Assembly: GCA_051294375.1 (NCBI GenBank)
Contig: JBJCIZ010000239.1
Coordinates: 1,568,581 to 1,632,580, forward strand
Direction of reading: 5' to 3'
Source of the DNA: Paraspadella gotoi
Taxonomy: Eukaryota > Animalia > Chaetognatha
Length of the DNA: 64,000 nucleotides
The notes beneath the pieces are model-generated. The model saw only the letters and a list, made by a program, of their open reading frames with translations, did not search any database and was not told where the DNA came from. The position numbers and the translations under genes are program-made. Shown one piece after another: positions 1 through 64,000 of the stretch (positions within the stretch are counted from its first letter, which is position 1; the number at the start of each line of letters is the position of its first letter).

Positions 1-1040
1 AATCCGAATCCGGCATCTGGAAGGCCAGAGGGGGGGGGGAATCGTGCAATTCCGGAGCTATCGCTATTATTTATAATTACAAATAGCTAGATGATACTGG
101 TTAAATTCAACGCAAGTTCTTCGGCCGACCTTCAGGCCGAGTCCTTCCTTCGAGTGAAACACGAGAGGCCGATTGAAGTCTCCGCGTTGGAAAAACTCGA
201 CGTCGAAGTCGTCGCCTTTCATCGGACGGACGAGGTTCGAGTCGTAGGCGTCTTGGCAACTCACTTTTTCTGAGGGATGGAAAGAAGGGCTTTGAAAGAA
301 GGGCTTTGAAAGAAGGTTGTTTAGGAATCGAAAAAAGGTCGTTGAAGGGCATTTAATAAATTGTTAAAAAGAACAGTGTAGTAAAATCCACTAAAATCCA
401 TCCTGTAACATCGATTCGAAGCTCAGGGACTGCTTATTGAGCAGTGCATAAATAATAAAAAATAATAAATAAACGGTATTATCACTTTCTCATAACAATT
501 ACTCTGAAAAGGTACCCTAACCAGAAGTAAAGTCACGAGAATGCGGGAAAATAATATATTAACATCAGGAAAATCTATACGGCGACAAAATCATGAGGGT
601 AAAAAAGGGGAGAAAACTAGTAGGAGAAGAGATAGAAGGTAGACTAAACCTCGTGAACGCGGCCCTGAATCCCTGGGAGGAGGATGAATGAGAAGGAGAG
701 GGGTAAATAGACCCGCGTCTGTCTATCACCTTTTATACTGAATTAAACTGTCTCTTCAAGGATTTCAAAAAAAAAAATAAATAAAATCAAAGGTGAAACA
801 ATCCTCACCGTTAAGATCGAAGCTTCGTTGTCCGTCAATGTAACTCTTCGCCTCGTCGTCCTCGAGATCTTCACTGTAAAATCTCCGCTCTCCTTTCCCT
901 CGTCGCAGCTTCATCGGGGACACGTCCTCCGCCACGACGGGTAAGTTTCGCTTCCGCGCGGCTTTCGTCGCCGCCGCAGCATCCGCGACCGCCGCCGCAG
1001 CATCCGCCGCTACCGACGCCGCCGTCGCCTTCGTCGTCAT
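1..1040 (-). CDS. KDM2: JmjC histone demethylase KDM2-like, 5' part (continues beyond left edge)
   Basis: Exons ~1040-810, 269-130 and 16-1 join by GT-AG to ...GQRSFDLN-EKVSCQDAYDSNLVRPMKGDDFDVEFFQRGDFNRPLVFHSKEGLGLK-MPDSD, resembling the KDM2A/B N-terminus before the JmjC domain. Start codon uncertain. Confidence 0.85.
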
Positions 1041-1431
1041 CGGCTCACCCTCGCTCCAAACCGTCGAATCATATTGGGCTTTCATGCAGATTGCAGAGTT
1101 CGGAGTGAGGGCCAATTTGATAATAACGATTTAAGATCCGATAGTCACGGCTCGGGAGAAGAAAAGTCAAATGTCACGTCGGACCGGACGATCGGGCATC
1201 GTTCAAAAAAGCCACGGAATTTAACATCCTTTTTCGAAACTATTAAATTTTTTCAACATTTTTTTAAATTAGCGATGAAAAAAAAGGTAGTAAATATAAA
1301 TTTGGAGGATATATAATGAGGGTAACGGCAACGTAAACGTGAATGGATGTCCTTGGCTTTTCTCTATTATTTTTGACTGTATTCTTGTCCGAAGGGAAGA
1401 AAAAAAAAGAACAACACAACCTTTTCATATT

Positions 1432-61500: not shown

Positions 61501-64000
61501 ACCGTTCCCTCGTCCACGGCGATGAGTCCCTTTTAAGTCAAAGGAACAACAAAGGATTAAGTCGTAATTTATACAATATACATAGTACATACATACACTT
61601 CTCATGGTCAGTCTGTTCTGCCAAGTCTCCCTTCACCTCCAACTCGAAGAATCCCGTCTCCAAGTTCTCCATCGACGACTCATCCTCGGCGTCGGAGATG
61701 AAGCCGTTGACGCCCGCGTCGCCGGCGACAGCGCCGACGAGGCTGCGGCGGGAAGCGACCGAGTTTCGGTCGCACGACGGAGGCGGAGGATCGCGGAGTT
61801 CGACGACGAAATTCTCGGGAAAGTAGAAGCCTTTCTTGTCGTCGAGGTCGCCTTGCCACCAACCGCCTTACAGGGTGAAATTGAGATATTAAAGTCGTTT
61901 TTAAATAAAGTTGAAACATATGATTATTAACCAAAACCTTACCCGACCGTTTGACGACGCTGGTGATGACGTCGCCCTTTCTAAAGGTGAGTTCGTCGTT
62001 GCGCTGCGCCTCGTAAGAGTGAATCGCTTTCACGGCTTTCAGCAATTTGTTGGGCTCCACGTAATCTCCGCCCGCGTCGTCGCCTCCGTTTCTCCTCAAC
62101 TCGTTCGCCAACGAAACCATTTCTAAGAAAAGATACATTTCTCAGAAATTGGAAAAGATGGCCAACAAAAGAGCATTTCAATTGTTTTACCCGAAATGAC
62201 GGGGTACTTGAGCTTCACTTTCTTGTAAAGAGGATGCTTTTGGTAGTACTCGACTAACTCGCAAAGGCTGTCAAAACATGCCGAGCCGATCAGGACATTC
62301 TGTTGCCCCATCGGCCCTAGAAAAGAAGCAAAGGAAGGTAAGCGCAATGAATTAAAAACTAAATGAATTACTAAATCGGCTCCATCACTTACCCCTATCA
62401 CTTACCCTCGCCCTCAGTTACGATTCCGCAATGATGAATCCTCCCTTCCGCCCGGAAAGAGACCGCGAATGAGTACTTGGGATTCTCCGAGGGCCTGACG
62501 AGGAAGGCCCCGTCCCTCCTCACGTTGCCGAGCCAATCCTCTGCGGTGCGACGCATAAGGTCGCGGTGCCACCAGGGACGGTGGTCGGGCGAGACGCGGC
62601 GCGGCACGTACTCGCTCAGGATGATTTCCTCTTGGTTCGGGGTCAATAGCCTTGGATAAAAAGTAAAGGTTAATCCGAATCGAGAATCGGGGTTCGAAAG
62701 AACAAAGAGAAAGCAACGCCCACCTGTGAGCCCGATAATAATTGACAAGATCCTGGACGTGATCGAACATGACTCGATCGACGAGGTAATACTTGGTGGC
62801 GCCGTCTTCGCCCGTCATCGATTTGACGCGCCCGTGTTGCACGCGACCGTTCCACCAGAACGACAACGTATAGTTGCCCACGAATTCGCCTTTTGGATAA
62901 TTAAATAATAAAATAATCTAAATCGATTATATATATCAAGACTTCCAGGTTGCGAAGTTTATTTACAGGAGTGGCGCACGAGAAAGGTTCCGTTTCCGTA
63001 TCCAGGCAACGAACCGTAATGCCTCATCAAATCTTGAGCGTCTCTTCGTCCGTCGGGACCGCGAATGGAATCGTGGAACCAAGGCTCGCGGTAGAGGGCT
63101 TCCGTCTGAAATGAAATTTAACGAATTTACATAATATAAATAATGGAACAAACTTGCGAACAAAAGGAGGAAAGAAACAAAGAAAGAAAGCAAAAGAAAA
63201 ACCTGATCTGCGACGCCGTTGTTGTTGTTGTTATCGGCCTCTTCCTCCTCTTCATCGTCCACATCCTTGAAGCAGAGACCCGAGTTAGTGAGCGCGAACT
63301 CATGCGGATGCCAATGATCGAGCAGGGCCTCGAAGTAATGAAGGGTGCCCGTCTTGAGGTGCTCCGAGTTGCCCGCTTTATCCCCGTACGGGCGGAACAT
63401 CAAGGCCTCGGGATCCTCGGGCAGCTTCTTGTGTTTGATGAGGATTTTGCGACGGAGTTGGTTGGGAGAGGGAAGGCTCGTGGCGCTGTGAAGAAGTTTA
63501 TAAAAGTATTTTTACATTTTTACAAAATACTAAACCATTCAAGGTTTTTGTTTCCCACCTCCGGTCGATGGGTTTGTCGAGGAGCATGTCTCCGAACTGA
63601 TCTTTCATGATAGAGACGATCGTCTTTTGTTGGGCAATATCACAGTGGTTTTCTGCGGATAAATAATATTTACTCGTAATGTATCAAATAGTAAATATAA
63701 TCGGATAAATCCTATATCCCCAGTCTCCATTTTTCTTTTCCCCGTTTGCTCGACGTACCGATAGATAGGATGAGCGGAAAGTCGGTAGTTTCGAAGGCGT
63801 GGCGTTTGATCGTGGCGATGACGGGGGAGAAGCTCAAACGGGTCGTCAACGTGAACCTAGAGACCGGGGAAAAAAGTTAGGATAGGTTTATAGGATTCTC
63901 TCAGGCGTCAAAGAGACTGACCCGTGATAAATGTGAGGTTCTCCGTTGGGTCCGTTCCAGCAATCTAACTCGATACAGCGACAGCCCATGCGAAGCGCGC
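58564..64000 (-). CDS. PLCG: Phospholipase C gamma, 3' part (5' end beyond right edge)
   Basis: X-box (YHGFTLTT, PLILSIENHC), two SH2 domains, SH3 ([19 protein letters not shown]), split PH, Y-box ([21 protein letters not shown]) and C2 ([21 protein letters not shown]). Confidence 0.95.

Follow-up and report, generated by a model that had tools for sequence, protein, structure and literature searches.

A same-strand array of 21 unrelated genes, open at both ends, as a putative chain of trans-spliced animal operons

The described systems closest to the locus analysed here, a run of 21 genes on one strand of a 64-kb stretch of DNA (the whole of which we call the window), are the trans-spliced operons of chaetognaths and other animals and, on the kinetoplastid side, directional gene clusters. 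The latter are bounded by strand-switch regions and contain no gene-specific promoters, and all of their mRNAs are trans-spliced. For chaetognaths, the consulted sections of PMC2481426 describe 36-nt spliced leaders in two species, an RP S14-PCNA operon in Spadella cephaloptera with three bases between the poly(A) site and the acceptor, and, on the same bacterial artificial chromosome (BAC), additional genes that are clustered and co-oriented. According to the accessible part of PMC12460157, nearly half of the genes of Paraspadella gotoi are trans-spliced and 18% lie in operons, the longest of which holds nine genes. Operons of Ciona intestinalis are mostly dicistronic, often without a spacer, and include up to six to seven genes (PMC7986045, sections consulted), and a nine-gene operon is described for Oikopleura dioica (PMC11067885, sections consulted); animal operons in these published accounts thus range from two to nine genes.

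Read across the whole window, the minus strand carries all 21 non-nested genes, arranged head to tail in the 5' to 3' order PLCG, DHPS, FAM91A1, HACD, Sm protein, RWD protein, eIF2B delta, CARD caspase, Cys-rich orphan, STAT, invadolysin, PPP1R15, FANCL, NEPRO, SDR, CCSMST1, 655-aa orphan, KYAT, WD40 protein (WDR37-like), AIMP2-like gene, and KDM2 (Table 1). Homology identified 19 of them and two are orphans; we take the WD40, Thioredoxin_16, Sm, and CCSMST1 genes to be orthologues of WDR37, AIMP2, SmD1, and UQCC4, respectively. In a Pfam scan of stop-to-stop open reading frames (ORFs) of at least 70 aa (229 on the minus and 171 on the plus strand, two of them trimmed to keep clear of a run of N), families above the curated cut-off were found on the minus strand only, with none of the 171 plus-strand ORFs reaching it. 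The only plus-strand gene found was a protamine-like ORF inside an invadolysin intron, and a GC and codon scan of 132 GC-rich segments, which very short or AT-rich genes could escape, returned no further long plus-strand candidate. Rfam and ARAGORN searches of the window found nothing. An earlier reading made from the sequence only had claimed that 21 of 21 non-nested genes share one strand, that the run crosses both window edges, that the genes are unrelated and not explained by tandem duplication, and that many cis-introns are retained. All of this was borne out: the strand by the Pfam scans, PDB matches, and sequence reading, the open ends by PLCG and KDM2, which are cut by the right and left edge, respectively, the lack of kinship by a self-BLAST of the window, which showed repeats only and no paralogous genes and ruled out tandem duplication, and the introns by 92 annotated acceptors and 13 joints seen in RNA. 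At 344 genes per Mb, compared with a Paraspadella average of 86, the window would be a dense region or part of a more compact genome.

The same reading had put the chance of such a run at about 1e-6. This is correct per position for 20 same-orientation junctions in succession under independent orientation, but it overstates the surprise. The expected number of such runs per 22,000-gene genome is about 0.01 with independent orientation, about 0.1 at chaetognath operon levels (0.11 with the published Paraspadella fraction of 5,061 genes in 2,151 candidate operons spread at random; PMC12460157), and 1.8 if neighbours share a strand with a probability of 0.66. The window was chosen for being striking and is a single selected case. 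Its run length therefore argues against an operon-free genome, without by itself requiring a kinetoplastid-like organisation.

We favour the reading, with a probability of roughly 55%, that the array is a chain of operons resolved by trans-splicing, in which spacers are small and some internal promoters probably occur. Several operons would follow one another in the chain, each transcribed as a multi-gene precursor in which cis-introns would be spliced normally, and trans-splicing of a leader would supply the 5' ends of downstream genes at sites that lie almost against the 3' end of the upstream gene; we infer both this leader and a link between 3' end formation and trans-splicing. Of the longer gaps, those before AIMP2, WDR37, CCSMST1, and DHPS might harbour a few internal promoters. 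The long one-strand run would then follow from two properties of operons: they make neighbours on the same strand common, and housekeeping regions rich in them are dense. Even so, a run of this length stands out. An operon chain would explain why short gaps have no poly(A) hexamers and why RNA contigs are fused, and it would explain the strand bias described here.

The spacing of the genes can be read directly. Across the 20 gaps, stop-to-ATG distances have a median of 439 nt (range 83-1527), 12 gaps being at most 500 nt long. As in described operons, adjacent unrelated genes share one strand throughout the array (21/21 non-nested genes), and a short distance from one 3' end to the next gene is seen in part of it, with 5/20 gaps of at most 160 nt: from the FANCL stop to the NEPRO ATG (83 nt, or 47 nt with the first ATG), from RWD to eIF2B delta (109 nt), from CCSMST1 to the 655-aa orphan (122 nt), from NEPRO to SDR (151 nt), and from the 655-aa orphan to KYAT (155 nt). 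AATAAA and ATTAAA are missing from eight of the 20 gaps, including all five shortest. None of nine common promoter motifs, judged by raw counts that are low, occurs in 12 of the 20 gaps. The WDR37 ATG is preceded at 70-88 nt by a GC box and an E-box. Two CCGGATGT motifs, which we read as ETS-like, lie 409-456 nt before AIMP2 in the longest gap, where a GC-rich patch (3900..4125) is a candidate internal promoter judging from its sequence.

These gaps bear on the possibility that the region is merely compact and its genes monocistronic, with their own promoters in or after the upstream 3' UTR, overlapping transcripts, and a run that belongs to the tail of a modest same-strand bias. We regard this as rather unlikely. 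Stop-to-ATG distances of 47-155 nt without a poly(A) hexamer leave no room for a 3' end, a promoter, and a 5' UTR, most gaps have none of the common promoter motifs, and a genome without operons would be expected to hold no more than about 0.01 such runs. On the other hand, a same-strand probability of 0.66 would suffice to produce the 1.8 runs given above, overlapping UTRs likewise fuse de Bruijn contigs, the acceptor tests reported below are not significant, A-rich leaders before ATGs need no trans-splicing, and a compact annelid genome without operons has been described (PMC7854359, sections consulted).

RNA evidence comes from one of the nine runs that contain 10300-20299, eight of which are DNA and one of which (X9) was guessed to be RNA. 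Its contigs, which are assemblies from one study and do not resolve single molecules, were compared with the window over 4000-23999 (20 kb), an interval in which 7 of the 20 junctions fall fully inside. At least 13 X9 joints have CT..AC ends and are absent from two DNA runs over that interval, indicating that X9 is spliced minus-strand RNA, and for 13 introns of WDR37 they confirm GT-AG splicing on the minus strand. X9 contig pieces cross at least four of the seven junctions (PPP1R15-FANCL, FANCL-NEPRO, NEPRO-SDR, and orphan-KYAT), the first three within one 8711-nt contig that skips two introns. No crossing of the CCSMST1-orphan junction is among the contig pieces listed, and the SDR-CCSMST1 gap is a repeat at which DNA contigs break too, so that this uncovered stretch was not counted as evidence. 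The 8711-nt contig has 3636 nt upstream of 21471, and an exon model comprising PPP1R15, the 510-nt invadolysin-PPP1R15 spacer, and the final six exons of invadolysin amounts to 3635 nt; given this agreement, the contig most likely spans five genes (invadolysin 3' exons, PPP1R15, FANCL, NEPRO, and SDR), with introns out and spacers in. Its start seems to lie just downstream of the intron that holds the protamine-like ORF. In addition, the X9 share of sampled words in 10300-20299 is 0.82, compared with predicted shares of 0.818 if introns and the repeat gap are absent and spacers present, 0.702 if spacers are absent, and 0.941 if introns are present.

Such a contig would also be expected from stable polycistronic mature mRNAs, in which introns are removed and cistrons stay joined, to be translated by re-initiation or leaky scanning, and it is indeed unbroken at four junctions with introns out and spacers in. 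However, a contig is not a molecule, and the spacers, 510-796 nt, are long for re-initiation. Nonsense-mediated decay targets RNAs with stop codons upstream of later exon junctions, and the stop codons here would expose a polycistron to it. We consider stable polycistrons improbable. The reading that the whole array is an artefact, arising from mis-assembly or missed plus-strand genes, is more improbable still. There are local assembly errors, namely a gap of ten N at 52670-52679 and small indels relative to all DNA and RNA runs in the C-rich WDR37 region at 8575-8741, but the N run lies within a FAM91A1 intron, no plus-strand ORF rises above the Pfam cut-off, and DNA contigs from two other samples span several junctions, which are thus not assembly joins.

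By length arithmetic, the KYAT contig of X9 ends near 9692 and the WDR37 contig begins near 9681, whereas DNA contigs continue through; beside the break lie a T/C-rich tract and, at 9662, an AG. This is a weak hint of a processing site or a transcription start site (TSS). If the WDR37 RNA started at this AG, 19-21 letters at the 5' end of its contig would be non-genomic and could belong to a leader; a TSS near 9681, which would make them genomic, is equally possible. Both the break and the promoter-like motifs bear on whether the window is one kinetoplastid-like unit of at least 64 kb, in a genome that, wholly or in its gene-dense parts, is laid out in long directional clusters with all mRNAs trans-spliced. 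The sequence-only reading had offered either a very long polycistronic unit or a chain of operons. The chain gains support from the short gaps without hexamers, the junction-crossing RNA contigs, and a likely lineage, Chaetognatha, for which such operons have been published, while the kinetoplastid-like alternative is disfavoured by the GC box and E-box before WDR37, the two ETS-like motifs before AIMP2, and the apparent KYAT-WDR37 break, which a processing site would also fit. Further points against it are that about half of the Paraspadella genes are not reported as trans-spliced, that the text and PDF supplements of the same paper, as far as consulted, mention no strand bias (PMC12460157), and that one selected window is considered. 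For it speak the co-orientation of 20/20 junctions with both ends open, the absence of any gap longer than 1527 nt, X9 depth in 30/30 bins of 4000-23999 (including the upstream part of the longest gap), and a run more than twice as long as the longest operons in the consulted reports, which reach nine genes for Paraspadella and for Oikopleura and six to seven for Ciona. We hold a single unit to be unlikely, and it is equally doubtful that an intron-rich bilaterian, probably a chaetognath, transcribes tens of unrelated genes per trypanosome-like unit, resolving them by trans-splicing while keeping cis-splicing.

Relatives of the encoded proteins were also examined. The nearest relatives of KYAT are four environmental clusters (71-73% identity), and those of eIF2B delta are likewise four (75-78%), one of them from the source 'merc', presumably a marine plankton catalogue; named animals of all groups reach 56-65% identity to the two proteins. 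The window protein and its environmental relatives form a clade with a Shimodaira-Hasegawa (SH) support of 100 in both quick trees. In the KYAT tree, which was built without non-bilaterian, tunicate, rotifer, flatworm, priapulid, and nematode rows, this clade groups with annelids, molluscs, and nemerteans as opposed to arthropods and chordates (SH 96). A tunicate affinity is supported neither by named matches nor by this tree, which has no tunicate row. Among the relatives, fragments stop at intron positions and have the last KYAT intron in common, implying that they come from environmental DNA. By elimination, Chaetognatha is the best fit for a common, probably planktonic group of bilaterians that lacks named proteomes, and it is the likely lineage of the window organism. 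The window KYAT has one intron in common with its environmental relatives and lacks two others of theirs. Some intron-free contigs of KYAT relatives are 5-6 kb long for an ORF of 1.3-1.5 kb, hinting at RNA contigs in which several genes of the relatives are fused. A metagenome scan with the KYAT alignment yielded 80 loci and no close relative among them, full-length matches being at most 61% identical, and a FANCL search gave one unnamed match.

Several observations weigh against a chain of trans-spliced operons of the chaetognath type. With regard to lineage, the eIF2B delta tree leaves the clade unplaced, the best named matches of FAM91A1 are ticks, spiders, and a sea star, and no named chaetognath protein is among the matches. 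With regard to acceptors, a pyrimidine tract and an AG followed by an A-rich leader can be seen by eye before most starts, an effect that is lost against controls. A position weight matrix (PWM) built from the 92 cis acceptors annotated in the window gave a median best score of 2.5 before starts, compared with 0.2 on the opposite strand (p=0.09), and did not separate starts from shuffles (p=0.08) or from post-stop windows (p=0.64); a tract plus YAG lay within 100 nt at 8/20 starts and in 21/82 control windows (p=0.16), and a change-point test for acceptors before starts gave p=0.17-0.55. Because the simple acceptor rule is passed by just 47/92 true acceptors, these tests are weak in both directions, and splice-motif counts per strand are uninformative, as coding sequence mimics the motifs. 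Among the six loose ends listed for X9 no spliced leader is seen, and none of the chaetognath type (GGAAGC...TTTAAA) either; contigs drop tips, and such clipping could be the cause of the missing leader. A leader-gene motif was not found in the window, where none is required. The X9 contigs traverse four putative trans-splice sites unbroken, and contigs crossing genes can arise from overlapping UTRs or trace DNA. The word share of 0.82 also fits allelic loss plus some DNA, with allelic differences blurring it, and 13 of the 20 junctions, for example those from caspase to FAM91A1, lie wholly or partly outside the interval compared with X9. Finally, the array includes the signalling genes PLCG, STAT, and caspase, a class that is depleted from chaetognath operons according to the consulted part of PMC12460157.

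Table 1. Positions of the genes and other features in the window, with the evidence for each
Feature	Position	Strand	Evidence
PLCG (phospholipase C gamma), 5' part beyond window	58564..64000	-	Pfam PI-PLC-X/Y, SH2, SH3; stop checked
Deoxyhypusine synthase (DHPS)	55223..57507	-	Pfam DS
FAM91A1	49940..54811	-	Pfam FAM91_N/C; named relatives
HACD/PTPLA dehydratase	48619..49489	-	Pfam PTPLA
Sm protein	47709..48190	-	Pfam LSM
RWD-domain protein, single exon	46479..47363	-	Pfam RWD
eIF2B delta, PAM2 motif in N-terminal part	43925..46369	-	Pfam IF-2B, PAM2; named relatives
CARD caspase	39269..43005	-	Pfam CARD, Peptidase_C14
Orphan spliced Cys-rich gene	36150..38779	-	ORFs and splice sites read from sequence
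STAT-family gene	29881..35851	-	PDB STAT5 E=1.5e-9; SH2
Leishmanolysin-like peptidase (invadolysin)	24930..29022	-	Pfam Peptidase_M8
Nested protamine-like ORF, 3' end approximate	27485..27880	+	Translation; label from composition
PPP1R15/GADD34-like	21238..24419	-	Pfam PP1c_bdg; three-exon frame open
FANCL	19159..20441	-	Pfam FANCL_d1-d3, FANCL_C; intron removed in RNA contig
NEPRO	17759..19111	-	Pfam NEPRO_N
Short-chain dehydrogenase (SDR)	16435..17607	-	Pfam adh_short; intron removed in RNA contig
CCSMST1-family gene	14301..15401	-	Pfam CCSMST1
Orphan 655-aa single-exon ORF	12211..14178	-	ORF; RNA contigs cover it
Kynurenine aminotransferase (KYAT)	10398..12055	-	Pfam Aminotran_1_2; named relatives
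WD40 protein (WDR37-like)	5133..9478	-	Pfam WD40; 13 RNA joints
AIMP2-like	1425..3605	-	Pfam Thioredoxin_16
KDM2 histone demethylase, 3' part beyond window	1..1085	-	PDB KDM2A E=2.5e-7
Region matching a single 8711-nt spliced RNA contig	16143..27059	-	16143-21471 listed; remainder inferred from length
Candidate processing site or TSS, KYAT-WDR37 gap	9640..9720	-	T/C-rich tract, AG at 9662; contig-length arithmetic
GC-rich non-coding patch, candidate internal promoter	3900..4125	-	Two CCGGATGT (ETS-like) motifs

Some of the individual genes deserve comment. The STAT gene is divergent, with a long Ser/Pro-rich tail after SH2 and N-terminal exons without a Pfam match, and the ORF at 29884-31155 probably forms its last exon. 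The two orphan genes, which sit within the housekeeping array and of which the 655-aa one is covered by RNA contigs, had no identifiable family and no usable ESM Atlas match. The nested plus-strand ORF has about 130 codons, SRCGKKRS repeats, and a composition rich in Arg, Lys, Ser, and Cys, and no Pfam family matched it. In eIF2B delta, a PAM2 motif above the Pfam cut-off lies in the N-terminal exon (45566-46369, minus strand) and is also present in two environmental relatives (P0333 and P0334); on the basis of this motif, eIF2B delta may bind PABP in the lineage of the window organism.

An element of about 320 nt has three tandem copies in a STAT intron (31197-32170) and further copies in two other introns (36964-37215 and 8740-8952), and at the copy around 8.7-9.3 kb the depth is very high in all runs. 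Short dispersed repeats (7135-7269, 32267-32400, 58372-58522, 34547-34618, 44845-44922, and 57039-57090) are mostly intronic and MITE-like, several bearing a ATGCAAAT/ATTTGCAT octamer. CpG is over-represented across the window (observed/expected 1.39), which is consistent with unmethylated gene bodies.

In the literature searched, the coverage of which is incomplete, we found no report of directional clusters on the kinetoplastid scale in the nuclear genome of an animal, and the consulted parts of PMC10282587, PMC2776167, and two bioRxiv preprints dealing with genomes of chaetognaths contain nothing on strand bias. The names of the window genes do not occur in three PDF supplements of PMC12460157, among which the operon table is not included. 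An array of 21 or more co-oriented genes under continuous RNA cover would demonstrate that in a trans-splicing animal operons can join into domains of kinetoplastid scale, and operon calls based on distance may split or undercount such chains. If the array were one unit, control of signalling genes such as PLCG, STAT, and caspase would be post-transcriptional, and the locus would offer a direct test of the extent to which an animal can dispense with promoters for single genes; as a chain with internal promoters, it would be a large but ordinary instance of the published system.

Compared with kinetoplastid directional clusters, the window has a similarly long run of unrelated genes, with no strand switch in 64 kb, and its at least 21 genes fall at the lower end of the tens to hundreds that such clusters hold. 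It differs from them in its nested antisense gene, its promoter-like motifs, and its many cis-introns, of which kinetoplastid clusters are nearly free. With the operons of Caenorhabditis elegans, which are rich in functionally unrelated housekeeping genes with spacers of about 100 nt (PMC7986045, PMC2776167), it has these traits in common, whereas nematode operons, with their SL2-type specialisation and U-rich element, are a few genes long. The operons of Ciona and Oikopleura are also tight same-strand clusters, but mostly of two genes and up to six to seven or nine; those of Ciona mostly lack intercistronic DNA and would therefore give continuous RNA cover as in the window. Chaetognath operons resemble the array in their unrelated housekeeping genes on the same strand, almost no spacer, and retained cis-introns, but their transcripts carry a leader of the kind missing from the listed X9 loose ends, and they end at nine genes, whereas here 21 co-oriented genes, signalling genes included, form an open-ended run. 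Taken together, the array is real and unusual, appears to work like a trans-spliced animal operon region, and is a putative member of that class.

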